64,000 bases of DNA, taken from the NCBI GenBank assembly GCA_023395735.1, contig JAEWYI010000026.1, positions 1,403 to 65,402 of the forward strand. The letters run 5' to 3'. This document shows positions 22,678 to 48,814 of the stretch, one piece after another. Each line of letters opens with the position of its first letter. Positions within the stretch are counted from its first letter, which is position 1. The translations under genes and the position numbers were made by a program. The notes under the pieces were generated by a model that did not search any database, was not told the DNA's origin, and worked only from the letters and a program-made list of their open reading frames with translations. Origin of the DNA: Cyanobacteria bacterium OH_SFB_17. Its GTDB lineage: Bacteria; Cyanobacteriota; Vampirovibrionia; Gastranaerophilales; Gastranaerophilaceae.

Positions 22678-23061
22678 ATGGCAAGGTCGTTTGCTATTTA
22701 CAAAGATGTAATCTTTGTTCAGAAAAGTGGAATTATGGGGTATATTCATTGTTGCGGGGGGATTCGCAAAGCAAAAAGTTATGCACTTAGTCCACAGAGG
22801 GGTTATTTATATGCTCAGGTAGATTTATTACAAGAGTGTCCCGTTTGCTTTCATACGGTCGTTCAGATAACCAGAATGGATTTAAATAATAACGTTTCTG
22901 TTTGTAGAAAAATTAATGATAAAGCAAGAAAACTTTTTGATAAAATCAAATCGGAAATTTTATATGAAAAAGATAAATACAAGTTTGTGACAAATCCAAC
23001 GTCAAAATTTTATCTTTATTACAACGAATACGGAATTAAAAAAAGTGTTATTCAAATATAA
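22678..23061 (+). CDS. hypothetical Cys-rich (CC...CPVC) protein; start uncertain
   Basis: The C-terminal two thirds look protein-like. The RBS is weak, with an alternative ATG at 22735 (MGYIHCCGG). A terminator follows at 23174. Confidence 0.4.
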   Translation: MARSFAIYKDVIFVQKSGIMGYIHCCGGIRKAKSYALSPQRGYLYAQVDLLQECPVCFHTVVQITRMDLNNNVSVCRKINDKARKLFDKIKSEILYEKDKYKFVTNPTSKFYLYYNEYGIKKSVIQI

Positions 23062-23173
23062 GTTCATTAAAGTTGGGATTGTTTGAAAACGGAAAAGAAT
23101 TTAGTAATAACCAGTTAAAAATACATAGCACACACTATCCTAAATAGAATCGATTCTTTTATCTTACTCTGAC

Positions 23174-23202
23174 GGGGAAGCTTTTGCTTCCCTCTTTTTT
23201 TA
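23174..23202 (+). terminator. rho-independent terminator
   Basis: Stem GGGAAGC / GCTTCCC with loop TTTT, followed by TCTTTTTTT. Confidence 0.7.
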
Positions 23203-23292
23203 TAAGAAAATACATTAGAATTAGTTATTATTTAAAGTGTAGTATTAGATAACTGGCTAGTGTTTAGTATATAAATAGAAATTTAAGGAATT

Positions 23293-23496
23293 ATGATGAA
23301 GTTATCGAAAAGAGAGTTGGAAATCCTTGAGCTAATCAGTTGGGGTTACTCAGACAAGGAAATTGCTTGTAACTTAAAAATATCAGCAAGAACAGTTCAA
23401 ACTCACGTAACAAGAATAGTGATAAAGTTGAATGCAAGAAATAGAACTAATGCAGTTGCCAATTATATGAGACAAAATTATATGAGTTTTGCCTGA
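23293..23496 (+). CDS. stand-alone LuxR/GerE-type HTH transcriptional regulator (67 aa)
   Basis: LSKRELEILELISWGYSDKEIACNLKISARTVQTHVTRIVIKLNARNRTNAV is a complete GerE-type HTH with no receiver or ligand domain. Confidence 0.8.
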   Translation: MMKLSKRELEILELISWGYSDKEIACNLKISARTVQTHVTRIVIKLNARNRTNAVANYMRQNYMSFA

Positions 23497-23577
23497 TTTG
23501 CTGAAAAATAGATTAATTTATTAAATTGCAACATCTAAGTTGTTGCTAGTTGTTATGCAAAAAAAAGGAGAGTCATA

Positions 23578-24066
23578 ATGAAGAGAATAATATTGCATTG
23601 GACTGCAGGTGGAGCTTTTCCGACTTCTTATGAGAAGGAGAGGTATCATTTTTTGGTAGATGGCTTGGGAAAAATTCATTCAGGTAAATTTAAACCCGAA
23701 GCTAATTTGGTTTGTCGAAAAGGAATGTATGCAATGCACGTAGGTGGCGGAAATACAGGTTCAATTGGGGTTTCGATGTGTGGAATGGCCGAATTTAAAA
23801 ATAAAAATAACCAAGGAAAATTTTCCATTAACAAAGTCCAGTTTGAATCAACAATGAAATTATGCGCCAAACTTGCGAATGACTACAAAATAAACTTAAT
23901 TCCGCAAAATGTTATGACTCATTATGAATTTGGGGAGAAAAATCCTAAAACGACCAGTCACGGAAAAATAGATATAATTTTTATTCCGCCTTATCCATGG
24001 ATTGCAAAGGAAGATTGCGGAAGTTTTATAAGATCAAAAATTCGTTGGTATCAAGAAAATATTTAA
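23578..24066 (+). CDS. N-acetylmuramoyl-L-alanine amidase (Amidase_2 / T7-lysozyme-PGRP fold), probable endolysin
   Basis: IILHWTAG (Zn ligand region), YHFLVD, HVGGGNTGSIGVSMCG and THYEF are present. The RBS is aaggaga. Confidence 0.75.
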   Translation: MKRIILHWTAGGAFPTSYEKERYHFLVDGLGKIHSGKFKPEANLVCRKGMYAMHVGGGNTGSIGVSMCGMAEFKNKNNQGKFSINKVQFESTMKLCAKLANDYKINLIPQNVMTHYEFGEKNPKTTSHGKIDIIFIPPYPWIAKEDCGSFIRSKIRWYQENI

Positions 24067-24081
24067 TGGAGAGGGTTTTAA

Positions 24082-25626
24082 ATGCAAACTTTATTTTATA
24101 ATTTATCTGGAGGAATAAGTCAGTCACAGAGCAAAACTGCAATGGGGTTGGAAACAAAAAAGCTTTATTGGACTGATGCTGAAAATATAGAAATTTTACA
24201 AAATAGCGGAATTATAAGGCAAAACGGAAACACTCGGCTTTTTACTTTGCCAGACAACGATGAAATAATAACGCTTCATCAAATGAAAGATATTGACTCG
24301 TACAATCTTTTAGTAGCTACAAAAAGCGGAAAACTTTATGTGTATTCTACTAAGAGTCTTACATTAACTGAATTGGATAAAAAAATAGATAGCTCAGTTC
24401 CTCTTTTTTGTGTTGAATATTTAGATGGGATTGTTTGCGGAAGTGAAAAAGATTCTCTTTTTTATATAAATAACGATGTTGGTTTTGCTGTGGAAAGCTG
24501 TAATCTTCTAGACTCTTTAGGTGCTCCGATTATGGTAAATGCGATTGGAATTTACAGCGGCAGAATTTGGGTTGCATCAAAAGCTACATTATATTATTCA
24601 GCACTTGGAAAATATAATGATTTTACTTCAGAAAATGATGCAGGTTATATTAATAATTTTTATACAAACACTGATGATATTTGCGCATTGAAAACGTATC
24701 AGGATTATCTGGCAATTTACAAGGAATCATCGGTATATTTGCTTTCTGGGTCGAATAATGATGATTTTAAGATTACCCCTTTTGCTGATAAAGGAACAGC
24801 CTCTGCTTTTGGGGTTGTTACTGTAAATAACAAGCAATATTTTATTAATGATGGTGTTTTTTCACTTGAGCAGGCAGGTTTGTTGAGGCAAATTCAGTTG
24901 GGCGCTGAGATTTCAATTCCTATTCAAAAAGAATTTAATCAGTTTGACAAAACCAGATTTTCAAAATTAATCGTTTTGCATTATGCAAACAAACATCAAG
25001 CGTGGTTTTTTCTTCCTTATCAAAATGATGAATATTTTCATACTATATGGATTTTTGATTATGTAAGCGAGGCTTGGTTTAAGAGGGTTGTGCCTCAAAA
25101 TATTACGTTTGCTTGTTTGTGTAATGGTTCAATTCTTACAGCAGATTCAAGCGGAAACGTTTATAAAGAAGATTTTGGAAAAACGTTTGATGGGCAGCCA
25201 ATTAAATTCCTTTGGAAATCCCCATTTTTAGCCTCAGGAAATTCAAATGTGAGAAAAACTATCGAAGAATTTTATTTTATCTTGGATGAGGATTACGATA
25301 ACGATTTTCAATTTTCAGTGTATAAGGATTATGATGCAGAATATAAAGATGACGGAGACAAAATTTATTCTTCCAATTCGACAAATCTTCTTTGGCATAA
25401 TGATTCATTGAATTCAAACAGAAATTATTGTTGGCCAGTTGAGTTGGTGAACAAATCCGCCTCAATGTCAAAGCCTGTTTTATGGTCGACAGGTGCAGAT
25501 TCTATTTATAAAGCTGAAATTTCAGAATCAAATTATGCCGTCCAGCTTTGTGTGGAAGGGAGCTCAATTGAACATAATGTTGCGATTATAGGTTTGGAAT
25601 TTAAAGAAATTTATACAGATGAGTAA
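24082..25626 (+). CDS. podoviral tail tubular protein B / nozzle-like protein
   Basis: The N-terminal FYNLSGGISQSQ matches the NLKGGISQQP signature I recall from the T7 gp12 N-terminus. The remainder is beta-rich and repeat-like. Confidence 0.55.
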   Translation: MQTLFYNLSGGISQSQSKTAMGLETKKLYWTDAENIEILQNSGIIRQNGNTRLFTLPDNDEIITLHQMKDIDSYNLLVATKSGKLYVYSTKSLTLTELDKKIDSSVPLFCVEYLDGIVCGSEKDSLFYINNDVGFAVESCNLLDSLGAPIMVNAIGIYSGRIWVASKATLYYSALGKYNDFTSENDAGYINNFYTNTDDICALKTYQDYLAIYKESSVYLLSGSNNDDFKITPFADKGTASAFGVVTVNNKQYFINDGVFSLEQAGLLRQIQLGAEISIPIQKEFNQFDKTRFSKLIVLHYANKHQAWFFLPYQNDEYFHTIWIFDYVSEAWFKRVVPQNITFACLCNGSILTADSSGNVYKEDFGKTFDGQPIKFLWKSPFLASGNSNVRKTIEEFYFILDEDYDNDFQFSVYKDYDAEYKDDGDKIYSSNSTNLLWHNDSLNSNRNYCWPVELVNKSASMSKPVLWSTGADSIYKAEISESNYAVQLCVEGSSIEHNVAIIGLEFKEIYTDE

Positions 25627-25711
25627 ATATTGCACTTGAGAATAATTGTAATATTTTTACGTAAATAACTACCGCGAATTTTCGCAAAAAAAAAGAAAGG
25701 AAAACAAAAAA

Positions 25712-26575
25712 ATGAGTGATTTGACAACAAACAGCTATTCTGCTTTTATTCCAGAAATTTGGAGCCAAAAGTTGAATACAATGCTATCAAAAAGTTGTGT
25801 TATGCTTCAATGTGTAAACAGAAATTATGAAGGTGAAATTAAAAATCAGGGTGATAGTGTGAAAATTATTACGCCGGCAGAAGTTTCAATTTCAACAATG
25901 GGTTCTTCCGCAATAACTTATAATGAGCTTGCTCCAGAAGAAACAGATTTGGTTATTGATCAAAAGAAATTTTTCGCATTTAAGATTAATGATGTTGCAC
26001 AAGCCCAAGCAAACCAATCAATTATGGAAGCGCATCTTCAAAATGCTAAAAAAGCGATAGAGCAGGTTCAAGATTCTTTTTTGCTTGGACAACACGCTTA
26101 TGTTGATTCTGCAAATATTGTAGAAGGCGGTTCTGCAATTGTGCTTGATAAATCTACAATTTATGCAAATTTTGTAAAATTAGCATTGAAATTGAAAAAT
26201 TCAGATGCTGTTTCTAATAACCAAAAACCTTGGGTTGTAATCAATCCGACAGTAGAAGCATTTTTGCTACAAAGCACAGAATTTATTGGTGCTCATAACG
26301 TTGCAGATGAAACTCTAAGAGAGGGTGCAATCGGAAGAATTGCAGGCATGGACGTTTTGGTTAGCACAAATTTGAGTGACGTTGATGGTAAATTCTATGT
26401 TTTAGCCGGTACAAACGAAGCGATTACTTTTGCTTCTCAACTTTCTAAAATTGAAAGCTTAAGAGACCAAGATAGCTTCTCTGATTTAGTTAGAGGCTTA
26501 TATTTGTATTGGGCAAAAACTGTTCAGCCTAAATCTTTGGCAAAAATGGTTATAACTGTTCCTGCATCCGTGTAG
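25712..26575 (+). CDS. phage major capsid protein (P22-coat/HK97-fold-like)
   Basis: The N-terminal SAFIPEIWSQKLNTML...NYEGEIKNQGDSVKI pattern is typical of coat proteins. It is followed by a very strong terminator, as is common for highly expressed capsid genes. Confidence 0.65.
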   Translation: MSDLTTNSYSAFIPEIWSQKLNTMLSKSCVMLQCVNRNYEGEIKNQGDSVKIITPAEVSISTMGSSAITYNELAPEETDLVIDQKKFFAFKINDVAQAQANQSIMEAHLQNAKKAIEQVQDSFLLGQHAYVDSANIVEGGSAIVLDKSTIYANFVKLALKLKNSDAVSNNQKPWVVINPTVEAFLLQSTEFIGAHNVADETLREGAIGRIAGMDVLVSTNLSDVDGKFYVLAGTNEAITFASQLSKIESLRDQDSFSDLVRGLYLYWAKTVQPKSLAKMVITVPASV

Positions 26576-26593
26576 GCGTATTAATAAAAAAAT

Positions 26594-26638
26594 TAGCGGG
26601 GCAAAAAAGGCAAAGCCTTTTTTGCCCCGCTTGATTTT
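26594..26638 (+). terminator. strong rho-independent terminator after the capsid gene
   Basis: 16-bp stem AGCGGGGCAAAAAAGG / CCTTTTTTGCCCCGCT followed by TGATTTTT. Confidence 0.85.
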
Positions 26639-26652
26639 TGAAAGGAAAAAAT

Positions 26653-26898
26653 ATGTTTAGCAATATAAAAATAAAAATTACAGAGCTCGCTTATTCTGCT
26701 GTGACTATCGCAGAAGATACTCTTTCCACATCAACAGGCCAAGACAAAAAGAAAGCTGCTGTAGAATATGTTGTTTCTATGCTGCCTATTGCAGGGCCTT
26801 TTAAACCTGTTTTAATTTTACTTTTGTCAAAATTTATAGATCAGGCAGTAGAAAGCGCTGTTTCATATATGAAAAACATAAAGAATTCGGAGGAATAA
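26653..26898 (+). CDS. small phage protein with an LL-H-holin-like C-terminal motif
   Basis: GQDKKKAAVEYVVSMLP...LLLSKFIDQAVESAV resembles the conserved tail of LL-H family holin-like proteins. It has one hydrophobic stretch. Confidence 0.35.
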   Translation: MFSNIKIKITELAYSAVTIAEDTLSTSTGQDKKKAAVEYVVSMLPIAGPFKPVLILLLSKFIDQAVESAVSYMKNIKNSEE

Positions 26899-27762
26899 AT
26901 GGAGTTCGAAAATATAGATTCATCTTATGCCGAAGGCCAAGATGACCAATTGCAAGCGGTTAAGAGTGATGAAAAGAATATTTTGTCGCAAAATGAGGAA
27001 TCATTTACTCATATTAACGAGAATATTGAAGAAGTTGAAAATTCTAAAATCATTAATGTTGAAAAAGAACTTTATGACGAAGTTTTGGATAAACTTGATA
27101 TTCAAAAAAAGAATGTTGACGATATACAAAACCAAAATGTTGAGAAAACACAGGTTGTTCAAAACAATTTTCAAAATTCTTTGATAAAGTCAAATGTTGA
27201 AAAAGCAATAAAAAATGATTTTATAAAAATTCAGCAAATGCAAAAAGCAGGCTTGATAAATTCTGCACAAGGGCAAAATTTACAAAAACAAGTACTAAGA
27301 AAAGCGTTTGATACTTTAGTACAGGCAGAAAAAAGCAAAGCAACTGCATTTTCTCAAAATTCAGTAGGCAAAAATTCAAATGAAATGAGCGCTCTTGAAG
27401 ACTTTACAAAAACAAATCCAGACTTTTTCAATGCAAATGGGAGAAAGGAAGTTTATGAGTTTTTGAAAACCGGTGTAGGTTCTATTGGAAAAGATGAATT
27501 GAATAAAATATCAGAAATTGTAAGAATAGTTGAAAAATCAGCAATAGATAGATATTTGCAAAAGGTGTCTTACGAAAAAACTTTAAAAGATTCAAATGAA
27601 ACTGCAAAGAAAAGATTGACTGCAAATGCGCAAAAATCTCGTTCTGCTGTGAATCTTTCAAGAAATTTTACACGTGAGCAAATCGGCAAAATGTCAAGTG
27701 CAGAATTTACAAAGTATGAGTCACAAATTATGGAACAGCTTAAAAAAGGGCTCATCAAGTAA
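26899..27762 (+). CDS. putative capsid scaffolding protein
   Basis: It is acidic and Gln-rich with predicted coiled coil. The C-terminal FTREQIGKMSSAEFTKYESQIMEQLKKGLI resembles the DUF4355-type scaffold ending. The RBS is ggagg. Confidence 0.5.
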   Translation: MEFENIDSSYAEGQDDQLQAVKSDEKNILSQNEESFTHINENIEEVENSKIINVEKELYDEVLDKLDIQKKNVDDIQNQNVEKTQVVQNNFQNSLIKSNVEKAIKNDFIKIQQMQKAGLINSAQGQNLQKQVLRKAFDTLVQAEKSKATAFSQNSVGKNSNEMSALEDFTKTNPDFFNANGRKEVYEFLKTGVGSIGKDELNKISEIVRIVEKSAIDRYLQKVSYEKTLKDSNETAKKRLTANAQKSRSAVNLSRNFTREQIGKMSSAEFTKYESQIMEQLKKGLIK

Positions 27763-27831
27763 GGAAAATAGGGTAGGGGCTGGGGTTTTTATATGCTCCT
27801 ATCCATAATTCCTATCCAAAAAGGAGAGAAG

Positions 27832-28470
27832 ATGAATTATTTTGATTTAATTAACAAATGTCTTGTCGAATTAAATTACAAAACGTGTGAATCGTTTACT
27901 GATTTGACAAAGAACGATCATGAGAAAATAAAAAATATTTTAAATATAATTAACGCAGAAGTTTGCGGATTTGATAATTGGAATTTTCTTTTGAGAAAAT
28001 TAGATGTGTTTTTGCCTAAAAATACTTCTGAAATTTTTAATAGTGTTGACGGAAGAATCCATGCTATTTATATTGACGATAAAAAGTATGAATATTTCCA
28101 CGATTTTGAAAAATTTATGCTAAACAGGCAACCCGCAAATACATATACAGTGTTTAATGACAAAATTCTTTTGCCGCTATTTAGTCAAAATAAAAATGCG
28201 CAAATCATTTATTATACAAATAATTTTGCGAAAGATGAAAACGGAAGCGACATTCTTTCTATGATAGCAGAAAAACATCAATCGTCGATTCCTTTTCCTT
28301 TTGTTGAGCCAATTTTGGTCTATGGTACATGTATGAGACTAAAAGGTAACACTGAATACAGCAAATTTTCTTACTGGTATGGTATGTATAAAGATTCGCT
28401 TGCAAATATGCGATCTAAAATAGGTTCAGATGCCTTGGCAACACCAAAAATCAAGCTCGAAAGGCAATAG
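27832..28470 (+). CDS. putative tail tubular protein A / head-tail adaptor-like protein
   Basis: The N-terminal DLINKCLVELNY...KIKNILNIINAEVCGFDNWNF parallels the pattern I recall from the T7 gp11 N-terminus (VNDILASIGE...RILNKINRQIQSRGWTF). The RBS is aaggaga. Confidence 0.4.
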   Translation: MNYFDLINKCLVELNYKTCESFTDLTKNDHEKIKNILNIINAEVCGFDNWNFLLRKLDVFLPKNTSEIFNSVDGRIHAIYIDDKKYEYFHDFEKFMLNRQPANTYTVFNDKILLPLFSQNKNAQIIYYTNNFAKDENGSDILSMIAEKHQSSIPFPFVEPILVYGTCMRLKGNTEYSKFSYWYGMYKDSLANMRSKIGSDALATPKIKLERQ

Positions 28471-28681
28471 TAAAATTTAAAAATGAAAAACAGGAAGGCT
28501 TAAAAAGTTAAACTAAAAAACAGGCAAGTCAGATGAAAGGAAATATCGAAACATGCCCAATAGATTTTAGTTTCCCATTCTTAGTCCCCCCTGTTAAGAT
28601 TTTACACTAGCCGAAATATAAATAGCATGACTATTATATACTTTTTTTTGGAAAAACACAAATAATTATAAGAAATGTAAT

Positions 28682-29116
28682 ATGAAAAACTTAACAAAAC
28701 AACAAAAACAATTTGTACAAGAATACATCAAAAGCCTTGATGCTGAACAATCTGCGCGCAATTCTGGTTATAAAACTAAGGATTTGAAAATTGTAACGGA
28801 ACGTTTACTTTCTAACAATTTCGTAATAAAAGAGATAAATAATCAGTTAAAAAAACAGATTTCAGCTTTGAGGGTTAACAAGGGGTATGTTGTACAAAAA
28901 TTCCTAGAAATAGCAGAATTTTCTCTTGAAGAAGAAGATATTTTAGATAAAGACGGTGGTTATACAGGCAAAAGAAGGCTTAGAGATGCTACGGTCGGAC
29001 TTCGGGCTTTGGAATCTTTGTGCAAGCATTTAGGCTTCAGTGAAAAAGATGGGGCTGACATTGATGATAGTCCTAAAATTATTACGATAAGCAATCTTGA
29101 TGAAAATAAAATATAG
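28682..29116 (+). CDS. terminase small subunit
   Basis: LTKQQKQFVQEYIKSLDAEQSARNSGYK is the HTH-like N-terminus typical of Terminase_2/P27-type TerS. Confidence 0.75.
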   Translation: MKNLTKQQKQFVQEYIKSLDAEQSARNSGYKTKDLKIVTERLLSNNFVIKEINNQLKKQISALRVNKGYVVQKFLEIAEFSLEEEDILDKDGGYTGKRRLRDATVGLRALESLCKHLGFSEKDGADIDDSPKIITISNLDENKI

Positions 29117-29127
29117 GAGTTCTAAAA

Positions 29128-29484
29128 ATGAAAAAAGACATAATTACTGATGAGCAAAGACTTTTAAGCAGTGCATCTTTGGATGATTTGATAAAGATGA
29201 AAATGGAAGAAGAAATGCTTAAGGAATTTGAAAAATCTAAAATCGTTAAGGAAAAACAGGTTATTACTGATATTTCAAAGGTGCCTTCAGATTTAATCTT
29301 TAGTAAAGGATCTGTTTTTAAAATTTTTAACAGAAAAAACAAGCTAGAATCTTTTATCAATGGAATTCAGGCTGAGGCAATGTTGGGTTTGCAGACTGCA
29401 TTGAGGGAAAAAATTAAATCAGGACAAATGGATGCTTTTTCAACGGAAAATGCTTATGTGAAATTTGAGAAAATTGTTTTGTAG
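29128..29484 (+). CDS. hypothetical phage protein
   Basis: RBS aggag is present, and a convergent terminator lies downstream. No family is recognised. Confidence 0.5.
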   Translation: MKKDIITDEQRLLSSASLDDLIKMKMEEEMLKEFEKSKIVKEKQVITDISKVPSDLIFSKGSVFKIFNRKNKLESFINGIQAEAMLGLQTALREKIKSGQMDAFSTENAYVKFEKIVL

Positions 29485-29520
29485 TTTAATTTTAAAATAA
29501 TTTTACTAGATACATCAAGA

Positions 29521-29564
29521 GGGTCCAACTATTTAAACAAAGTTTTGTTTAAATGGTTGGACCC
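29521..29564. terminator. bidirectional terminator between convergent genes inside the phage block
   Basis: Long hairpin GGGTCCAACTATTTAAACAAA / TTGTTTAAATGGTTGGACCC. Confidence 0.8.
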
Positions 29565-29595
29565 ACAAATTTTAAAACGAGGTTTTATGTTTGTA

Positions 29596-30051
29596 TTATT
29601 GAAGAATTATTGAAAAAATTTCATTTGCAAAAAGTACAAAGAACAAAAGCAAAACAAGTATAGCTAAAGCTTTTTGTGTATCTGCAAATAAAAATTCTCT
29701 TTTATTTTTTCTTAAATCTTTTATTCCTACAAATTCGTCTGTAAAAGGTTTTGCAGGGAGTGATTTTTCCATTTCTTCTATCACTTTTCCAAGTTTAACT
29801 TTTATCAAAAAGTTATAAGAGTCCATATTCATCCACCAAAGAATACAAATGGTCATGCCTGCAGCTGAAAAAATCAGAGTTGACGTTAGTCCATAAGCAA
29901 AAGTGAAATCTTTGGTTAAGAACATGATTAAAATCAAACCTAGGTTAAGAACAAGATAAAATTTGTTTGTAAAAAAACTTCTGTCAACAAAATGTTCTTT
30001 TTGCTCTGTGTAGAGCTTGTATTGTTGGAATAAAATTTCGTCAGAATTCAT
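29596..30051 (-). CDS. small multi-pass membrane protein on the opposite strand (moron-like)
   Basis: The N-terminal cytoplasmic segment is FQQYKLYTEQKEHFVDRSFFTNKFY, followed by 3-4 TM helices. It is the only minus-strand gene in the block. Confidence 0.65.
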   Translation of the reverse strand: MNSDEILFQQYKLYTEQKEHFVDRSFFTNKFYLVLNLGLILIMFLTKDFTFAYGLTSTLIFSAAGMTICILWWMNMDSYNFLIKVKLGKVIEEMEKSLPAKPFTDEFVGIKDLRKNKREFLFADTQKALAILVLLLFFVLFANEIFSIILQ

Positions 30052-30094
30052 ATAAACACCAGCCTTTCGTTGGAATAATTGTAAGGGTATATAG

Positions 30095-30643
30095 ATGAAA
30101 AGTCAAGAGTTAAAATCATTTAAGTTTGTCAAGATAATAATTGACAGAAAAAATAATCAATTTAAAAATTTGCATTTTTTACCAAAAATCGTTGATTTGT
30201 ACAAAAAATTTTCAAAATATTTATCAGATGATTATTTTTTGAATAGAGACAAAAACATTATTGATGCAGTAATGCAGCTTATAGAATCAGTGGGTCCCTA
30301 TTTTTGGGTGGTTGTAGATAGCGAAAGTCAGAAATTTGCAGGAATAGGTTTTTTAGAAAATTGGGTGGGAAGTAAAAATCAAGCTCATTCGGTAGAGGTT
30401 ACGACATGTTTTCATCCTGAATACTGGGGAAAATATACAAAAATTTGTGCTAAAAAATTTATAAAATATTGTTTCAAAAAATATAAATTAAAAAAGATGA
30501 AAGCATGTATTTTTCCTCAAAACACAAGGGTTAGGGCTTTGTTGAAACAGGCCGGTTTTAAATATGAAGCAAGATTGTATGCAGAAACATTGAAAGATGG
30601 AAAATTTCAAGATATCGAAGTTTTTTCAATAATTCGTAAATAA
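30095..30643 (+). CDS. GNAT family N-acetyltransferase (RimJ/RimL-like)
   Basis: HPEYWGKYTKICAKKFIKYCFKKYKLKKMKACIFPQNTRVRALLKQAGFKYEARL is a typical RimJ/L-type GNAT core. Confidence 0.75.
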   Translation: MKSQELKSFKFVKIIIDRKNNQFKNLHFLPKIVDLYKKFSKYLSDDYFLNRDKNIIDAVMQLIESVGPYFWVVVDSESQKFAGIGFLENWVGSKNQAHSVEVTTCFHPEYWGKYTKICAKKFIKYCFKKYKLKKMKACIFPQNTRVRALLKQAGFKYEARLYAETLKDGKFQDIEVFSIIRK

Positions 30644-30655
30644 AGGAGATTAATA

Positions 30656-32317
30656 ATGGAATTTAACAAAACTTATGAAGATTTAACAACAACACTAGAG
30701 GCAGATGAGGAGTTGCTTTTAGTTCAGAAACTTCCACAAAAATATGATGAATATGAAGCTTCCAGAACAGAGCAGCTGACCGACATAAAATTAATGCGTG
30801 ATACTATTTATACAAATCAGGTTCCCAAAATCAACGGTTGGGATTCAAAAATTGAACTTCCTGATATTTATGAGTTAGCGCAGACATTAAAATCACACAT
30901 TAGTGACAATTTGTACTCTCATCCGGATGCAATGTTTGATGTGTCAGGTACAAATCCTCAGTCGCAAGCTTTCGCCAATCGCCAAAAGGCTATGTTGGTA
31001 AATACTTTTGAGCAAATGAAGCTTGAAAATGAGTTGGAAAAAGTTATAGACGGAATTGTTGAATCAGGAGAATCAACTCTTTTTGTGGGGTGGGAAACCG
31101 ATATAAAATCAATAAGAAGAGCTCAAAATATTGAAGAGCAACTTGTTGCGCCAACTGATGACGGGTTTGTAGTTGAAAGCAAAATTGTATATGATAATCC
31201 AAAAATTAAATATATAAGTCCTGAAGATTTTGTTTTTGATACAGTTTCCAAAGATAATTGGGATGGCTGTTTAAAAATTTATCGAAATTATTCAAATATT
31301 GAGGAATTGGTTATTAACAAAGCAAATAATTTGTTGACCGAAGAAAAAATCGAGACTTTGAAAGGGGTGGTGGATAATAAATTTAAAAAAGATACAGATA
31401 AGTCAGTAGATGACAAAAGGGTTGAAGTTCTTGAATGTTGGGGTGATATTGAGTTAAGTAATGGAGAAATTTTAAAAAATTGGCTTGTCGTTGTGGCAGC
31501 AAGACGAGAAATCATAAGATTTGAACCAAATCCTTTTATTGCAAATCCATTTATCCACGCAAATATTATTGAATGTCCAAGAACATGTCGAGGAATTTCT
31601 CCTCTCAGAGTTGCTTTAATTTTAAATAATATTTCATCCACAATTTTAAACAAACAAATTGATGCTCTTGCCTTGATGATGAATCCACCATACTTGGCGC
31701 CTAAAGGTTGTTTCAAAGGGGAGCAGGTTGTAAAACCTGGAAAAATTATTGAGTATGATTCAGCACTTATGCCTACAGCTCCTACTGCACTAAGTTTTGA
31801 TAAAGCAATGCAGGGATGGGAGTTTTTGACTTATTTTAAATCGACTATTGAAAGTGCAACAGGGATTTTTAATAATATGTCCGGAAATCTTCAAACAGAG
31901 CAACGAACAGCAACAGAATTGAATTATTCTGTATCAGGGCAAACAACAAGATTGAATATGATGCTTGATGCAATTAATCGAAAAATTATAATTCCTATGG
32001 TAGAAAAAACAGCCGAGTTGATTGCAAATTTTAAAATTGGCCGCGAAATGATAAGTATTAATGATAGGGGAAGAACCTATTTTATTGAAATAGATGATGG
32101 GATAAGAAATGCAAATTATATATACAGATATGGTGACAGAAAAGCAACAATGGAGAGAAAAACAAAAATCAATGAGGTTTTCACAATCGTAAAATCGTTC
32201 GCAGAAGTACCTGCTGTTTCAAACCGTATAAACTGGCTTGAGTGTTTTAAATTTGCTCTTGAACAGTATGGAATTGAAAATGCTAATAATTTTTTGATTG
32301 ATAATACTTTGAATTAA
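30656..32317 (+). CDS. putative portal (head-tail connector) protein, podovirus type
   Basis: The size is 553 aa and it sits next to terL. The RGISPL...MMNPPY and EQRTATELNYSVSGQT segments parallel T7 gp8 segments as I recall them (YGRSYI...LVNPAG, ERVTAEEIRYVASE). Confidence 0.6.
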   Translation: MEFNKTYEDLTTTLEADEELLLVQKLPQKYDEYEASRTEQLTDIKLMRDTIYTNQVPKINGWDSKIELPDIYELAQTLKSHISDNLYSHPDAMFDVSGTNPQSQAFANRQKAMLVNTFEQMKLENELEKVIDGIVESGESTLFVGWETDIKSIRRAQNIEEQLVAPTDDGFVVESKIVYDNPKIKYISPEDFVFDTVSKDNWDGCLKIYRNYSNIEELVINKANNLLTEEKIETLKGVVDNKFKKDTDKSVDDKRVEVLECWGDIELSNGEILKNWLVVVAARREIIRFEPNPFIANPFIHANIIECPRTCRGISPLRVALILNNISSTILNKQIDALALMMNPPYLAPKGCFKGEQVVKPGKIIEYDSALMPTAPTALSFDKAMQGWEFLTYFKSTIESATGIFNNMSGNLQTEQRTATELNYSVSGQTTRLNMMLDAINRKIIIPMVEKTAELIANFKIGREMISINDRGRTYFIEIDDGIRNANYIYRYGDRKATMERKTKINEVFTIVKSFAEVPAVSNRINWLECFKFALEQYGIENANNFLIDNTLN

Positions 32318-32326
32318 TTTTCTTAA

Positions 32327-32355
32327 TAACGCGCCAGCGTCGCTGGCGCATTATT
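32327..32355 (+). terminator. GC-rich hairpin after the portal gene (weak T tract)
   Basis: GCGCCAG-CGTCG-CTGGCGC hairpin, flanked by AATAAC and ATTATTAATT. Confidence 0.45.
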
Positions 32356-32419
32356 AATTATTAGGTATTATGGGAAACTACAATCCATTTTGAGAATAAA
32401 ACATAGTCGGGATTTTTAC

Positions 32420-33712
32420 ATGAAATATAATTTATTAAAGTCGCAGAGAGAATTTTTAGAGATTCCGCATGATTACAGCTTGGATGTGGCTGTTTATCAG
32501 GGAGGTTTTGGCTCCGGAAAAACTTTTGCAGGGTCTCTTCTTGGAATTTTATTATGTATGAAATTTCCTGGAATAAGAGGGCTTGTTGGCGCTCAGACAT
32601 ATACTTTGGTCAGAGATACTACACTTCAGACTTACTTTGAGCATTTGGATAATCTTAAATTTAAGGAAGGGAAAGATTATGATTGGTCTTCTTCGCTTCA
32701 AAAATTGACTTTTAAAAACGGTTCTGAGATTTTGTTTCGTCATTTTGATGAGCCAAATAAGTTGAAATCTTTAAACTTAGGATTTGTTGAAATCGAGGAA
32801 ATGTCAGACATTCCTTTTTCTACGTTTAAGATGCTTTTGGGTAGAATGAGGCAGTCGGTAAAGTCTAATTGGCAAGATTTTACTTACAGGATTTTTGGGC
32901 ATACAAACCCTGAATTTCAAAGGGGTTGGGTATATAAAACTTTTTTGGAAGATATAAAACCTAATTACAGACTTATTTCTGCTCCTACAACACAAAATAT
33001 TTATTTACCTGAGGGATTTTGTGATGAGTTGAAAAAATTGTACGATGAAGAGTATTATAGAATTTTTGTTCTTGCTCAAAACGGGGAATATGATAAGGGG
33101 CTTATAATAAAAGATTTTTCATCCGAAAATATCAAAAATATTGAGTATCAGCAAGATATGGATTTGCATATTACTTGTGACTTTAACGTTGATCCAATGG
33201 CGTGGATTTTAGCTCATAAAACCGAAGAAAAAGTTTTTTTCTTTGATGAACTTGTGATTGAAAACACAACTACTGCAAAGGCATGCGATGAATTTTTCTA
33301 CAGATATCCAAAGCACAAAGGTAAAATTATAATTAACGGAGATGCATCAGGGGATAATAGAAGCTGTACAAGCGAGTTTACAAATTATGTAATCATAAAG
33401 AAAAAACTTGAAAGCTTTGGTTATCAAGATGTTGAAATTAAAATTAAGGCTTTTAATCCGCCAATAAAAAACAGAATTATGGCTTTCAATTCAAAAGTTC
33501 GCTCGGCTGATGGTGAGGTGAAGCTTTTTGTTGATAAAAAATGTGAAAAATTACTATATAATATATACAATTTGAGATACAAAGAAGGTTCTTCAAAAAT
33601 TGATTTGCCGACTTATACTCAAATAAAACAAGCAAAAGAATTGAAATTTCTTGGGCATCCAATGGATGCCGCCTCATATTTGGTTGAATTTTATTGGCCA
33701 ATTTCTTTGTAA
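32420..33712 (+). CDS. terminase large subunit
   Basis: Walker A is GGFGSGKTFAG and Walker B-like is LGFVEIEEMSD. The C-terminal nuclease-like region is CDFNVDP ... INGDASGD. I chose the start at MKYNLLKSQREFL. Confidence 0.85.
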   Translation: MKYNLLKSQREFLEIPHDYSLDVAVYQGGFGSGKTFAGSLLGILLCMKFPGIRGLVGAQTYTLVRDTTLQTYFEHLDNLKFKEGKDYDWSSSLQKLTFKNGSEILFRHFDEPNKLKSLNLGFVEIEEMSDIPFSTFKMLLGRMRQSVKSNWQDFTYRIFGHTNPEFQRGWVYKTFLEDIKPNYRLISAPTTQNIYLPEGFCDELKKLYDEEYYRIFVLAQNGEYDKGLIIKDFSSENIKNIEYQQDMDLHITCDFNVDPMAWILAHKTEEKVFFFDELVIENTTTAKACDEFFYRYPKHKGKIIINGDASGDNRSCTSEFTNYVIIKKKLESFGYQDVEIKIKAFNPPIKNRIMAFNSKVRSADGEVKLFVDKKCEKLLYNIYNLRYKEGSSKIDLPTYTQIKQAKELKFLGHPMDAASYLVEFYWPISL

Positions 33713-33788
33713 CAAATTGTTAATATAATTAAAGGTTATTAAAAAATATTCCGATATAAAAAAAGGATGATATAAAAGGAGTATTTTA

Positions 33789-34880
33789 ATGAGACTTTCA
33801 GGTATAAACTGGGGTAATTTGACACCCGATCAAATACTTGATATGGAAGAAAGCGGCGTAAGCGTTCCTTCTGAATATCTCGATTGGGCAGAGTCAATGA
33901 ATGGAAAGACCGACGACACCTTTGATGAAGTCACATCTACTGATTTGAACAATGATGCAGGTAGTACGAATGAGGCAAAGGCTTTGTATGAAGCTCTTTC
34001 TGATGAAGGTGTTTCGTTGATGGAAATTGCAGATATCTTTGAAAATAAATGCGAAGTTCAGGAATCAGATATGCTTGAGGCTATGACTCAGTTAAAACAA
34101 GCGCAAGAAGAATCTGATAGCGTTTCAAATCAGCTTGATAACGAAACAGCAACAACTATGTCCGAATTGGATGATCTTTTGAACCAGCTTGGGATTTCTC
34201 AAAACAATAAAAATTCAGGGACAAATACTTCAGGCGATGATTCCAATGATATTGTGGATAATATTAACGGAGTAGTTAATGATTCAACAGGAGTGACAAA
34301 CGGGCTTACCGCAAAACTTCAGGCTATCGGTTCAAAAATTTTATCGGTAGCAAAAAAAGCGACTAATGCTTCAGAAACTGCTAATCAAACTCTTGATATT
34401 GCAGACAAACTGGCTGATAAGGGCGGTATAAATCTTGCCAAAACATACGTTGGAGCAACTCTTGGAGGTGCAGCAGGCGGAATACTCGCAGGCGGTGGAA
34501 GCATCGGTTTGGCTGCAGTAGGCCTTATCGGCGGATTTTCTTTGATTCCTGTAATTGGCGTAGGCGTCGGAATCGGAATGCTGTTGGGCGGATTGTTTGG
34601 CGGCGGCAAAAAGAAAAAATATGCCAAAGAAGCTCAAGAAGCAAATCAAGCTGGTCAGCAACTCCAGAGTTTTGCAGATCAGGCAAAAGCTCAGTCTGCA
34701 GAAGCTGCAAAAGCTAATGGTTTCTCCCTTGTCACAGGTTCAAAAGCTGTTCAGGCTATTAAAAAGGCAGCTTCGTCGATTTCAGCTGAGCAAGCAGGAA
34801 CAGGCAGTGATTCTGTGGATTCAAGCACTCCTGAGGTGAGCACTGAAAGCGATGACTCAAATCCAAAGAAAAAAATATAA
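33789..34880 (+). CDS. hypothetical phage protein with an acidic N-terminal half and a Gly-zipper transmembrane segment
   Basis: RBS aaggag is present. The TM segment is GATLGGAAGGILAGGGSIGLAAVGLIGGFSLIPVIGVGVGIGMLLGGLFGGGKKKK, and the tail is Ala/Gln-rich. Confidence 0.55.
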   Translation: MRLSGINWGNLTPDQILDMEESGVSVPSEYLDWAESMNGKTDDTFDEVTSTDLNNDAGSTNEAKALYEALSDEGVSLMEIADIFENKCEVQESDMLEAMTQLKQAQEESDSVSNQLDNETATTMSELDDLLNQLGISQNNKNSGTNTSGDDSNDIVDNINGVVNDSTGVTNGLTAKLQAIGSKILSVAKKATNASETANQTLDIADKLADKGGINLAKTYVGATLGGAAGGILAGGGSIGLAAVGLIGGFSLIPVIGVGVGIGMLLGGLFGGGKKKKYAKEAQEANQAGQQLQSFADQAKAQSAEAAKANGFSLVTGSKAVQAIKKAASSISAEQAGTGSDSVDSSTPEVSTESDDSNPKKKI

Positions 34881-34898
34881 GATATAAATAGGTATTTT

Positions 34899-34946
34899 AT
34901 CAAAGCGGCGAAAAATCTTCGATTTTTCGCCGCTTTGATGTTTTAT
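34899..34946 (+). terminator. strong rho-independent terminator
   Basis: 19-bp stem ATCAAAGCGGCGAAAAATC / GATTTTTCGCCGCTTTGAT followed by GTTTTAT. Confidence 0.85.
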
Positions 34947-34961
34947 GAATGAGAGGTTTTT

Positions 34962-35192
34962 ATGTATAATTTATTACATTATTCGCCAATAATTATAGCG
35001 GTGATTGTTTTTTTGATACAGCAGAGAATAGTCGTTACTCCAGAGCAGTTGGAAAGAAAGCATCGTGAGATATTAAATGATGCAGAAGAGCGCTTTGCAA
35101 CATTGAGCAGCGTGAGGGACTTGAAAGAGCAGTTTTGTGATATGAAAGAAAAAATTGATAAAATTTATGATTGCATTATCGCAGTCAAGTGA
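34962..35192 (+). CDS. small single-pass membrane protein (76 aa)
   Basis: RBS gagagg is present. The N-terminal TM is YSPIIIAVIVFLIQQ and the tail is predicted coiled coil. The stop lies 3 nt from the convergent speE stop. Confidence 0.5.
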   Translation: MYNLLHYSPIIIAVIVFLIQQRIVVTPEQLERKHREILNDAEERFATLSSVRDLKEQFCDMKEKIDKIYDCIIAVK

Positions 35193-48582: not shown

Positions 48583-48814
48583 TTTTCACCTCATCCGTTA
48601 CCATTTTATCAGAAAAAAAGTTAAAAATAAAATATTTTTAAAAACATTGATATCATTGGTTTTTAACTATATTGTTAAAGACAAATATTACAAAAATGTT
48701 ACAAATTAAATAGAAAAATTAAAGATTATCATTAAAATGGTCGATATAAATAGAGTTAGGAAAATGTACAGGGATTGGAAAGACAATCCTGAACAAAATG
48801 GAGGCTCGAAAATT

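Follow-up and report, generated by a model that had tools for sequence, protein, structure and literature searches.

Positions 22678-35192 of the window, a 64,000-nt stretch of contig JAEWYI010000026.1 from the Gastranaerophilales genome Cyanobacteria bacterium OH_SFB_17 (GCA_023395735.1), hold a cassette of phage-type genes. These encode a GerE/LuxR regulator, an Amidase_2 endolysin, a podovirus nozzle, an HK97-fold coat protein, a holin, a scaffold, a tubular-A-type adaptor, TerS, an SU10-type portal, and TerL. Fourteen genes form a set that is conserved among related loci and spans approximately 11.5 kb; in the window, everything, including the lysis genes and the regulator, lies within one locus. 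An initial annotation described the block as co-oriented, which is correct for most genes (plus strand) but not for the gene at 29596-30051. The features are as follows.

22678-23147, plus strand: o127 family gene, first of the conserved set, encoding a small β-rich protein
23157-23193, plus strand: conserved noncoding block AATTATCTTACTCT between o127 and the LuxR gene
23293-23496, plus strand: stand-alone GerE/LuxR-type helix-turn-helix (HTH) regulator, 67 amino acids (Pfam PF00196, 9e-19)
23578-24066, plus strand: Amidase_2 endolysin (PF01510, 1.2e-11; PHROG 5867 endolysin, 7e-30)
24082-25626, plus strand: tail nozzle (hub) protein, β-propeller type (AF2 model and Foldseek)
25712-26575, plus strand: major capsid protein, HK97 fold, P22-coat-like family (PHROG 267, 1.8e-47)
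26595-26631, no strand assigned: strong two-way intrinsic terminator, a 17-bp-stem hairpin and T-run 3' of the coat gene
26638-26898, plus strand: holin, Holin_LLH family (PF09682, 1.5e-7; PHROG 6918)
26899-27762, plus strand: putative scaffolding protein (orthologue HMM matches in relatives)
27832-28470, plus strand: adaptor/tail tubular protein A (PHROG tail families; weak PDB match)
28682-29116, plus strand: small terminase subunit, TerS (PF03592, 3.5e-14; PHROG 51, 5e-18)
29128-29484, plus strand: o118 family gene, a conserved set member found in 74 loci and in the phage genome L101 (see below)
29596-30051, minus strand: 8xMP membrane protein (PF24838, 6e-18)
30095-30643, plus strand: RimJ-like GNAT acetyltransferase, an integral set member (PF13302, 1.9e-10)
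30656-32317, plus strand: portal protein, SU10 type (PF23899 SU10_portal, 7e-22; PHROG 332, 2e-32)
32390-33712, plus strand: large terminase subunit, TerL (PF04466, 5.5e-19; GGFGSGKT motif)
33789-34880, plus strand: 363-amino-acid low-complexity membrane protein, outside the conserved element
34962-35192, plus strand: o76 family gene, encoding an N-terminal transmembrane helix and a coiled coil

The cassette is flanked by host genes (MnmE, MatE, and an SLH protein, speE, HIT, proS, and CheW). The speE stop lies 3 nt past the last open reading frame (ORF) of the block, and proS lies 1.9 kb from the cassette. The cassette has a GC content of 32%, and it equals the host in GC3 (0.259 versus 0.266) and codon usage (RSCU distance 0.106 versus 0.098). 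The ordinary chromosomal flanks, the closeness of speE, and the host-like composition had all been noted in the initial annotation, and each was confirmed.

Searches with Pfam, PHROG, AF2/Foldseek, and orthologue HMMs also upheld its calls for head, tail, packaging, and lysis genes. The AF2 model of the nozzle (pLDDT 68) has the Pa223 nozzle 9nwi_Y as its top Foldseek match (E = 2e-16, TM 0.62) and also matches the nozzles of PhiM1, VP1, SU10, P22 (gp10), and T7 (gp12); its N-terminal NLSGGISQ motif resembles the N terminus of T7 gp12. The coat protein shares 31 to 41% identity with many phage capsid proteins. The hairpin that follows its gene, first described with a 16-bp stem and found here to have one of 17 bp, has counterparts of differing sequence at the same place in 48 of 52 relatives. 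Family searches gave no match for the ORF at 26899-27762, but its orthologue HMM matches an ORF between portal and coat in relative L001, an ORF directly 3' of the portal in L102, and L101 as well, suggesting a scaffolding protein; its N-terminal third is variable among orthologues. The adaptor ORF opens at 27793 with a conserved start at M14, and PHROG tail-protein families 6013, 394, and 10775 are matched by 22 of 25 orthologues. Its PDB match is weak (9k09_d, tail tubular protein A, E = 0.024), and in relatives L103, L104, and L109 the adaptor lies between coat and nozzle. A gp11/gp12-type adaptor-nozzle pair is thus indicated by the nozzle fold, with weak but consistent evidence from the adaptor.

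The portal has 1,550 homologues. TerL likely starts at the ATG at 32420, since orthologues align from residue 11. Scored against the PBSX family TIGR01547, it reaches 85.5 bits, under the curated cut-off of 105, and by this measure it is related to that family yet not a curated member. The initial description of the block as T7-like finds no support as a family assignment. The portal-adaptor-nozzle architecture does resemble the podovirus tails of T7, P22, and SU10, the nozzle is similar in fold to T7 gp12, P22 gp10, and the SU10 nozzle, and T7 likewise has a terminator after its coat gene. However, the coat belongs to a family other than that of T7 (PHROG 267), and the T7 portal family PF12236 (Head-tail_con) is only faintly matched (15.7 bits, cut-off 27), so that the portal is not of the T7-like (Autographiviridae) kind. 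Nor does the cassette encode the phage RNA polymerase, DNA polymerase, internal core proteins, fibers, or tailspikes of these phages; no ORF for a phage single-subunit RNA polymerase was found in the block, the 80 loci described below, or L101.

At the head of the cassette, o127 has orthologues in 61 loci, with an invariant HCC...CPxC motif and a dN/dS of 0.14. Its AF2 model had no match in the PDB and a sole match in BFVD, an uncharacterised gut-phage protein. Although every ORF had been thought intact, alignment and frame analysis revealed a frameshift in the window copy: the A-run at 23038-23044 (A7) is one nucleotide short, and the ORF as read stops at 23061, with the conserved C terminus continuing in another frame until 23147. 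Unless this is a homopolymer sequencing error, the window copy of the cassette may be impaired. Immediately after the noncoding block AATTATCTTACTCT come a GC-rich hairpin, whose pairing is preserved though the stem sequence differs among relatives, and a T-run. Of the 10-mer TATCTTACTC, 1.39 Mb of related loci contain 51 copies here and two at other places, which makes the block a candidate for a cis-regulatory site or a leader terminator. The LuxR gene, present in 62 loci, has PedR as its best NCBIfam match (53 bits, under the cut-off of that family) and usually ends approximately 7 nt before the amidase gene in related loci.

Among the accessory genes, o118 had no match in family searches, and the 8xMP gene is confined to a subset of lineages (10 of 80 loci), with a match in L101 (3e-41). 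Free or phage relatives (L101, L103, and L104) also have the GNAT gene, where it adjoins nozzle or TerL. The 363-amino-acid ORF had no tblastn match in the 80 loci, where o76 directly follows TerL; it has a GC content of 42%, against 32% for the cassette, and its own terminator (34898-34940). By these comparisons, it is a lineage-specific insertion outside the conserved element. The o76 gene, found in 68 loci at 50 to 91% identity (dN/dS 0.115) and present in L101 and L001, may encode a lysis accessory protein.

A portal relative is encoded in 256 species-representative genomes. The best 80 of these are all Gastranaerophilales or Melainabacteria metagenome-assembled genomes (MAGs), from gut and environmental sources, and in all 80 loci the 14-gene set is colinear wherever the contig reaches it, while portals among these species differ by up to 31%. 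Disruptions number approximately 6 among 982 gene copies. Median dN/dS for the cassette genes ranges from 0.02 to 0.36, all well under 1, with values of 0.17 for the amidase, 0.11 for the coat, 0.074 for the nozzle, 0.063 for TerS, 0.040 for the portal, and 0.022 for TerL. The terminase genes evolve slowest in the set (0.02 to 0.06), an argument for selection acting on DNA packaging itself. An active phage, too, should have intact genes under purifying selection, so these features alone are no proof of benefit to the host.

The cassette has also diverged together with its host, as judged against linked flanking genes. Pairwise protein distances of TerL follow those of the flanking SecA (r = 0.89, slope 0.95), as do those of the portal (r = 0.89); the corresponding coefficients for portal and TerL are 0.81 and 0.93 against the flanking radical-SAM (rSAM) gene and 0.82 and 0.73 against ZupT. 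Chromosomal context varies. The clade of the window has SLH and speE flanks, most other loci have rSAM upstream and c0-secA downstream, eight have rSAM and then other host genes, and two metagenome loci carry the cassette inverted. Approximately 20 cassette-bearing contigs are labeled viral in IMG/VR. No clean empty site was seen among 31 rSAM-anchored loci. The initial annotation had preferred domestication to decay while naming absence from close relatives and frameshifts or stops in orthologues as signs to the contrary; the locus is not absent from close relatives, disruptions are few, and the colinearity, low dN/dS, rarity of disruptions, and co-divergence make domestication well supported.

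As first reported, the block has no integrase, repressor, replication genes, tRNA, or flanking direct repeats beyond chance. Nor was an integrase, replication initiator, repressor, or att repeat found in 128 related loci that carry or flank the cassette. No integrase is conserved in the flanks of these loci, where host genes abut the cassette. Homologues of RecT, RecE, and CI, taken from the related phage L106, in which RecT, RecE, and a CI-like repressor are present, were likewise not found in the window or the 128 loci. The cassette therefore has none of the integrase and att sites, immunity repressor, or replication module of an intact temperate prophage. It also differs from PICI and capsid-forming satellites, having no integrase or replication (pri-rep) genes and encoding its own adaptor and nozzle in place of helper tail genes.

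A free relative is known. L101 (IMG/VR UViG 3300031555_010071) is a 17.0-kb genome, complete as judged by its 129-bp terminal repeat, that holds all 14 conserved cassette genes (54% identity for portal, 58% for coat, and 63% for TerL). Beyond these, L101 encodes an excisionase-like HTH regulator and a protein for replication initiation (PHROG 270, 1e-14); no homologue of either was found in the window or the 128 related loci. L101 is a free, replicating relative with a different gene order and a GC content of 46%, and the LuxR gene was not found in it, whereas the cassette is a chromosomal resident. Because L101 combines all cassette genes with a replication module, the cassette corresponds to a mini-podovirus minus that module. 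A complete phage homologue had been expected to count against domestication if the block were merely a fragment of it and the locus were absent from close relatives; L101 is such a homologue, but the cassette amounts to approximately 80% of its genome, and close relatives do have the locus. Fibers and core proteins, whose absence had been remarked on, are indeed not in the cassette but, by comparison with L101, are not missing from it.

These features invite comparison with gene transfer agents (GTAs). Classical GTAs (the RcGTA type of Alphaproteobacteria and VSH-1 of Brachyspira) are phage-derived head, tail, and packaging clusters (for an overview, see PMC12946183). Purifying selection maintains them, they pass vertically through a host order, they do not self-replicate, and lysis releases them. 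The cassette is also phage-derived, order-wide, and under purifying selection and has no replication genes. Its structural and packaging genes are host-chromosomal and vertically inherited, as seen from the colinear loci, co-divergence, and host-like codons, and neither genes for autonomous replication, integration, or excision nor att repeats accompany them. Classical GTAs stem from long-tailed phages, and RcGTA relies on several loci that are not linked to one another and on regulators of the host, among them CtrA and GafA; in contrast, the cassette appears to descend from a mini-podovirus and has its own GerE/LuxR-type regulator in the cluster. If its size is unchanged from that suggested by the L101 genome, a head of approximately 17 kb could contain the whole 11.5-kb locus, unlike those of classical GTAs, which hold less DNA than the cluster.

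A parallel in architecture is FpGTA of Faecalibacterium prausnitzii, an experimentally demonstrated podovirus-like GTA (PMC12946183). FpGTA is a chromosomally fixed element of approximately 10.5 kb in a gut bacterium, with TerS, TerL, portal, scaffold, and coat genes, lysis by holin and endolysin, no replication or integration genes, and near-ubiquity in its host clade (PMC12946183). It differs in host phylum and in comprising two loci, with lysis, fiber, and receptor-binding genes 125 kb away (PMC12946183), and it packages 8.4 to 8.9 kb, below the size of its loci (PMC12946183), whereas L101 suggests a head above the size of the cassette. FpGTA particles have short or no visible tails and are backed by particle, proteomic, and packaging data (PMC12946183); the cassette was compared with FpGTA in architecture. 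Related portal-plus-capsid islands occur in PhiMa05 (MW495066) and in a MAG of landfill Melainabacteria, and a comment paper terms them "prophage remnants" (PMC13623518). In a Vampirovibrio-like chromosome, next to lepA-proS, the PhiMa05/landfill island holds genes for portal, scaffold, coat, and nozzle plus an o76-like gene; the window cassette is also near proS. However, the PhiMa05 island is far more divergent (22% identity for portal and 41% for coat, versus 58% for proS) and differs in gene order, and no gene for TerS, TerL, adaptor, or amidase lies within 12 kb of it; it may be orthologous to the cassette or an independent capture. We found no description of the Gastranaerophilales cassette in the literature searched.

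With its replication genes lost and its gene set intact and in constant order in at least 80 species, the cassette is a strong candidate for a new GTA-like particle system, with GTA-type DNA transfer as the leading reading. We favor, with somewhat better than even confidence, an endogenised, replication-deficient mini-podovirus that is vertically inherited under selection and most likely makes GTA-like particles carrying host DNA. Under this model, the chromosome of an ancestor shared by the Gastranaerophilales, which are nonphotosynthetic Cyanobacteriota, would have permanently taken in the genome of a very small short-tailed phage, passed down vertically under purifying selection since. That genome would have lost the replication initiator and excisionase-like regulator that the free 17-kb relative retains and acquired, at the head of its operon, the small GerE/LuxR regulator, which may control it. 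It would nonetheless specify all parts of a particle. Coat, scaffold, and portal would build a small head, and adaptor and nozzle a stub tail; TerS and the PBSX-like TerL would load DNA, probably by a headful mechanism; and holin and amidase, perhaps aided by the membrane protein o76, would lyse the producer cell. Most likely, a lysing subpopulation would thereby release phage-like particles that take host DNA to other cells.

The domestication evidence fits equally well a particle system selected for something other than gene transfer, which we regard as rather unlikely. Such a system could be a killer particle that attaches to competitors and harms them, a programmed lysis of a subpopulation that frees DNA or nutrients, or a means of interfering with infecting relatives of the ancestral phage. 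The model for the first is PBSX of Bacillus subtilis, a chromosomally fixed defective phage of approximately 28 kb. Its Terminase_2 TerS and PBSX-family TerL load host DNA into killer particles with a contractile tail, which leave the cell by lysis. The cassette has lysis genes inside its conserved operon and a TerS and TerL of Terminase_2 and PBSX-like families, with TerL below the PBSX family cut-off. PBSX, however, kills via its contractile tail, and the cassette encodes a podovirus stub instead; no toxin or receptor-binding module was found in the cassette, and the slow evolution of the terminase genes points back to packaging. For FpGTA, too, its authors leave open whether gene transfer is the selected function (PMC12946183).

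Efficient spread rather than inheritance would explain the wide distribution if the cassette were a still-mobile small integrated phage or a PICI-like helper-dependent satellite, moved between genomes by host recombinases or a distant integrase. The complete free relative, the several chromosomal contexts with the inverted configuration, and the contigs classed as viral are compatible with this account. We nevertheless consider it very unlikely: no integrase, replication initiator, repressor, or att repeat was found in the window or the 128 related loci, host genes directly abut the cassette, its distances follow those of flanking host genes with a slope near 1, its codon usage is host-like against 46% GC in the free relative, and none of the rSAM-anchored loci is a clean empty site. 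A recently decayed, functionless prophage remnant, the main alternative in the initial annotation and suggested by the lost replication and lysogeny modules, the o127 frameshift, the terminase-free PhiMa05 version, and the "remnant" label given to related Melainabacteria islands (PMC13623518), is scarcely credible, since 14 genes that stay intact and colinear over at least 80 species at such portal divergence and low dN/dS, with TerL conserved as much as SecA, contradict neutral decay, which by now would have ruined the reading frames.

The GTA-like reading can be taken further, though only tentatively, to a functional, order-wide, podovirus-type GTA derived from a 17-kb mini-podovirus, with outward packaging resembling lateral transduction and a LuxR switch at the ATTATCTTACTCT-terminator site. 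Because the head would hold more DNA than the locus itself and terS lies in the middle of the cassette, packaging would begin within the chromosome and proceed outward from there. If this is true, the downstream TerL, o76, the hypervariable c0 gene, secA, and regions beyond would be moved at high frequency, and the cassette would be the first GTA in the Cyanobacteriota, in their nonphotosynthetic branch.

The phage-derived block at window positions 22678-35192 (the cassette) holds 14 conserved genes in about 11.5 kb once an insertion is set aside. ORF listing and profile searches bore out nearly all the gene calls of the initial annotation, and its observation of the block stands with four corrections.

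Cassette genes with an assignment (window coordinates) and the grounds for it
23293-23496, stand-alone GerE/LuxR helix-turn-helix protein (PF00196, 9e-19)
23578-24066, Amidase_2 endolysin (profile search)
24082-25626, predicted nozzle, 514 aa (fold match of AlphaFold model)
25712-26575, major capsid (coat) protein (PHROG 267, 1.8e-47)
26638-26898, Holin_LLH holin (profile search)
26899-27762, putative scaffold, 287 aa (position only)
27793-28470, tubular-A-type adaptor, 225 aa (weaker grounds: PHROG tail families, PDB profile, gene order)
28682-29116, Terminase_2 small subunit, TerS (profile search)
29596-30051, minus strand, 8xMP membrane protein (PF24838)
30656-32317, SU10-family portal (profile search)
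32390-33712, Terminase_3 large subunit, TerL (profile search and GGFGSGKT motif)

The same searches gave no assignable role to the conserved families o127, o118 and o76 or to a GNAT acetyltransferase. The ORF at 24082-25626 has vague sequence matches and no PDB match by sequence profile; fold comparison alone succeeded. An AlphaFold model made with 37 homologues as input (pLDDT 68) has the Pa223 nozzle as its top fold match (E = 2e-16, TM 0.62) and resembles PhiM1, VP1, SU10, P22 gp10, T7 gp12, and three cyanopodophage nozzles, so that the modeled product matches a nozzle protein of the short-tailed phage type. For the adaptor, 22 of 25 orthologues match PHROG tail-protein families, the profile finds the cyanophage A4 "tail tubular protein A" in PDB (E = 0.024), and the gene is flanked by coat and nozzle in relatives whose gene order is canonical. 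We called 26899-27762 a putative scaffold by position; an HMM of its orthologues matches the ORF between portal and coat in L001 (an island in the PhiMa05 record) and the ORF right after the portal in the related locus L102. TerL is nearest to the PBSX family (85 bits, under the cutoff of 105). Orthologues of TerL begin aligning at the ATG at 32420 (MKYNLLK...) and those of the adaptor at the ATG at 27832 (MNYFDLINK...), and the longest-ORF starts of these genes, at 32390 and 27793, are probably not the real ones.

The genes had been described as co-oriented, which fails for one conserved gene, 8xMP (PF24838). This gene lies antisense inside the cassette and occurs only in the window's clade and a few other lineages (10/80 loci), and also in L101 (IMGVR_UViG_3300031555_010071), a free relative; we therefore regard it as ancestral and repeatedly lost.

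The cassette is widespread in one bacterial order. Its portal has 1,550 homologues in the protein collection; the best 120 of these are 77 to 100% identical and 549 to 576 aa long, and the named ones among them come from Candidatus Gastranaerophilales or Gastranaerophilaceae MAGs. With each GTDB species represented by a single genome, a portal relative turned up in 256 genomes. The best 80 of the 256 (portal 69 to 83% identical) are Gastranaerophilales or Melainabacteria MAGs, a few with plainly wrong bin names, from human, chicken, rabbit, horse, yak, and reindeer gut, from lakes, and from soils. When every window protein was compared with these 80 loci by tblastn, the cassette proved colinear in every locus whose contig reaches it, in the order o127-LuxR-amidase-nozzle-coat-holin-scaffold-adaptor-TerS-o118-(8xMP)-GNAT-portal-TerL-o76. 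Of 982 gene copies, about 6 have disruptions away from contig ends.

One of the disrupted copies is the window's own o127 (ORF 22678-23061), so the earlier statement that every ORF is intact does not hold. Compared with more than 60 orthologues, it is frameshifted in an A7 run at 23038-23044, a run that in relatives is one base longer (A8 in the related loci L007, L030, and L075) or interrupted. The conserved C terminus (KKCYSN-SSLK-GLFEN) runs on in another frame to 23147, and a -1 slip on A_AAA_AAA_G would bring it back. The frameshift may reflect a sequencing error in the homopolymer, a genuine inactivation, or slipped-strand switching (phase variation). A lambda-Q-like antiterminator had suggested itself for o127 because the gene lies 5' of a conserved motif, a terminator, and the lysis and structural operon, and because of its Cys motif; this idea found no support in structure, the AF2 model of an orthologue being beta-rich (pLDDT 75) with no PDB match. 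The sole BFVD match of that model is an uncharacterized gut-phage protein.

The 363-aa ORF at 33789-34880 (o363) has no counterpart in any related locus (tblastn, 80 loci), and in relatives o76 starts within tens of bases of TerL, which marks this ORF as an insertion restricted to the window's lineage. Its GC content is higher than the cassette's, at 42%, and a 20-bp-stem terminator of its own lies at 34898-34940. The product is acidic in its N-terminal half, with a Gly-rich membrane segment and a tail rich in Ala and Gln; similarity to upstream ORFs, of which it might have been a paralogue, is not significant. At the portal|TerL junction, other lineages have unrelated insertions of their own (e.g., a 188-aa secreted protein in L030); together with o363 at TerL|o76, these identify the junctions as insertion hot spots.

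Selection on the cassette genes is purifying throughout. Median dN/dS per gene (Nei-Gojobori, pairs with 0.1 < dS < 1.2) is 0.022 for TerL, 0.040 for the portal, 0.063 for TerS, 0.074 for the nozzle, 0.11 for the coat, 0.115 for o76, and 0.14 to 0.36 for all the others, with 8xMP highest at 0.36; the check that the initial annotation had named thus returns values well below 1 for every gene (0.022 to 0.36). Measured against linked host genes only, pairwise protein distances of portal and TerL correlate with those of SecA (r = 0.89 for both) and of the radical-SAM protein (r = 0.81 and 0.93, respectively), and TerL diverges at a rate equal to that of SecA (slope 0.95). Composition is that of the host, as had been noted: in comparison with 22 host genes of the window, GC3 is 0.259 versus 0.266, and the RSCU distances (0.106 ± 0.014 for the cassette versus 0.098 ± 0.017) are indistinguishable. 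Co-divergence and host-like composition are together what a resident locus passed on vertically would show.

The chromosomal setting fits the earlier description of ordinary host flanks in the window: to the left lie MnmE, MatE, two unknowns, and an SLH protein, to the right speE, HIT, proS, CheW, and a chemoreceptor, with no tRNA found and no flanking direct repeats beyond chance. Across relatives the commonest context is (FliI)-ZupT-radical SAM on the left and c0, a hypervariable protein family, followed by secA on the right. The speE-HIT flank is confined to the window's closest relatives and the SLH flank to the window alone; proS lies within 2 to 6 kb of the cassette in the window and L030. 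We scanned metagenomes for empty sites from the upstream radical-SAM gene, which left 31 loci with room to judge. The cassette comes directly next in 21, the cassette plus c0 is inverted in 2, and other host genes follow in 8 (e.g., fabD-fabH-plsX in L169, L170, and L180); a clean radical SAM-to-c0 junction was found in 0/31. The radical SAM|cassette junction is a recurrent rearrangement breakpoint.

Proteins of the c0 family are 515 to 666 aa long; their N terminus MGLAASQARFLAITSRK is invariant, a coiled coil at the C terminus is conserved, and the middle is hypervariable. In 50 species, c0 lies about 120 nt 3' of o76 on the same strand (e.g., L030 14030-15712); the window's sole version is a divergent paralogue of 351 aa that lies 13.5 kb away, at 48737-49792. 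Searches of Pfam, NCBIfam, and PDB profiles gave c0 no match. In two gut metagenome contigs, cassette and c0 are inverted together relative to the upstream ZupT-radical SAM pair (L168 4399-11874, L206 485-8914).

The 5' end of the cassette has a distinctive regulatory anatomy. LuxR and amidase genes are typically about 7 nt apart, so that LuxR heads a lysis-nozzle-coat transcription unit; 3' of the coat gene the window has a strong hairpin terminator (26595-26631), and in 48 of 52 relatives a hairpin, of unrelated sequence, is kept there. Between o127 and LuxR, a conserved noncoding block, AATTATCTTACTCT, abuts the 5' side of a GC-rich hairpin with a T-run (window 23157-23193 including the hairpin at 23174-23193), and its conservation is above that of the surrounding coding sequence. 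The 10-mer TATCTTACTC is found 51 times at this site, against two occurrences anywhere else in 1.39 Mb of related sequence. We rejected the 12-mer as a host promoter motif of general use, since it is specific to one site in the 1.39 Mb. The ATTATCTTACTCT-terminator region is a candidate cis-regulatory site that may gate read-through into the operon, with AATTATCTTACTCT possibly serving as a protein-binding site or a leader terminator signal. No Rfam family reached its gathering score within the cassette, AATTATCTTACTCT block included, and RNAalifold found no consensus structure in the conserved leader because the hairpins do not align. Most species (L030 and the majority of other loci) have a longer LuxR ORF (median 84 aa): its start lies some 17 codons further 5', at a conserved GGAAATATTATGAAT block, and the extra N-terminal stretch is hydrophobic. 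The window's clade has a 67-aa LuxR and a different conserved leader, GAAAATACATTAGA ... GTGTAGTATTAGATAACT.

Free relatives point to the ancestor. Close IMG/VR relatives are all short contigs amounting to the cassette itself. More distantly, L106 (36-kb contig, portal 36% identical) is an ordinary temperate phage in which RecT, RecE, and a CI-like repressor adjoin an o127-like gene, portal, coat, adaptor, and nozzle, and L103, L104, and L109 have the canonical order TerS-TerL-portal-scaffold-coat-adaptor-nozzle-GNAT. L101 (portal 54%, coat 58%, TerL 63% identical) is a 17,135-bp contig of 46% GC whose 129-bp terminal direct repeat (128/129 identical) marks it as a complete genome of about 17.0 kb, which is unusually small for a terminase-packaging podovirus. 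All 14 conserved cassette genes are among its roughly 20, and it further encodes an HTH protein resembling an excisionase or regulator and a replication initiation protein (PHROG 270, 1e-14; Pfam HTH_36); the complete genome has no LuxR gene, integrase, or polymerase. Neither the window nor any of the 80 genome loci and 48 metagenome loci has a homologue of the free relatives' extra genes. The cassette therefore corresponds to a mini-podovirus genome that has lost its replication and regulatory module and gained a GerE/LuxR regulator. Tail fibers and internal core proteins, listed initially as missing, are absent from L101 as well, and the encoded particle is probably structurally complete. 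The candidacy of c0 as the missing fiber fails on the same genome, which has no such gene, so no fiber is needed to account for the set. Of the label "T7-like," the adaptor-nozzle architecture is shared; membership in the family fails: an RNA polymerase is lacking, the portal falls short of the T7 family's threshold, and the coat is from another family.

In the literature on phages, prophages, and GTAs of Gastranaerophilales and Melainabacteria we found no description of the cassette. To our knowledge very few GTAs are known, nearly all in Alphaproteobacteria. By architecture, the closest described system to the cassette appears to be FpGTA of Faecalibacterium, reported in 2026 as the first podovirus-like and first gut GTA; it has a 10.5-kb TerS-TerL-portal-scaffold-coat operon and a second locus with fiber and lysis genes, and its 40-nm particles hold 8.4 to 8.9 kb of host DNA (PMC12946183). 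Classical GTAs have a head capacity below the size of their locus, whereas a head of about 17 kb, if unchanged, would exceed the 11.5-kb cassette. A comment published in 2026 on PhiMa05, a wrongly assigned "jumbo phage," pointed out islands with portal and capsid genes in two places, a Vampirovibrio-like contig and a Melainabacteria MAG, and called them prophage remnants (PMC13623518). In that record ("Microcystis phage MaAM05/PhiMa05," MW495066.1), aspS, hppA, pgcA, lepA, proS, and ftsH surround a partial cassette, L001 (202577-228076), with portal, scaffold, coat, nozzle, and an o76-like gene beside lepA-proS and no terminase within 12 kb; these host genes agree with the comment's view of a bacterial, Vampirovibrio-like contig (PMC13623518). 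L001 and the window share the proS adjacency, but their cassette genes (portal 22%, coat 41% identical) are far more divergent than proS (58%).

Read from its genes, the locus is predicted to supply every component of a small head-tail particle of the short-tailed kind, along with a terminase of two subunits and a holin-endolysin pair; it cannot replicate or integrate unaided and has been kept by selection across a bacterial order. We are confident that it is a vertically inherited, selected, replication-deficient phage-derived particle locus, and conservation, selection, co-divergence, and host-like composition lend good support to the domestication proposed at the outset. In a subset of cells, some signal sensed via the GerE/LuxR protein and the conserved leader would trigger the operon; heads would assemble on scaffold and portal and be filled with DNA by a headful mechanism, and adaptor and nozzle would be added before the cell lyses. 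As no replicating phage genome is there as substrate, the packaged DNA would be chromosomal, giving GTA-like behavior. With terS in mid-cassette and a head of about 17 kb, if retained, packaging might run directionally into downstream host genes. The particle may alternatively be a killer particle or have a role in programmed lysis. A GTA-type function seems the leading reading, and we somewhat favor the composite statement, a domesticated mini-podovirus cassette with GTA-like function, over its negation. Such an element is new for its host phylum and for its type of ancestor.

The Gastranaerophilales, bacteria common in the gut and in fresh water, are known almost wholly from MAGs. If the reading is true, an order-wide particle system would be a major, previously unnoticed route of DNA exchange or programmed lysis among them, and would represent an independent domestication from an unusually small phage. 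It would correct the view of such Melainabacteria islands as mere prophage remnants and account for the repeated labeling of ~11-kb chromosomal segments as viral by virus-detection pipelines.
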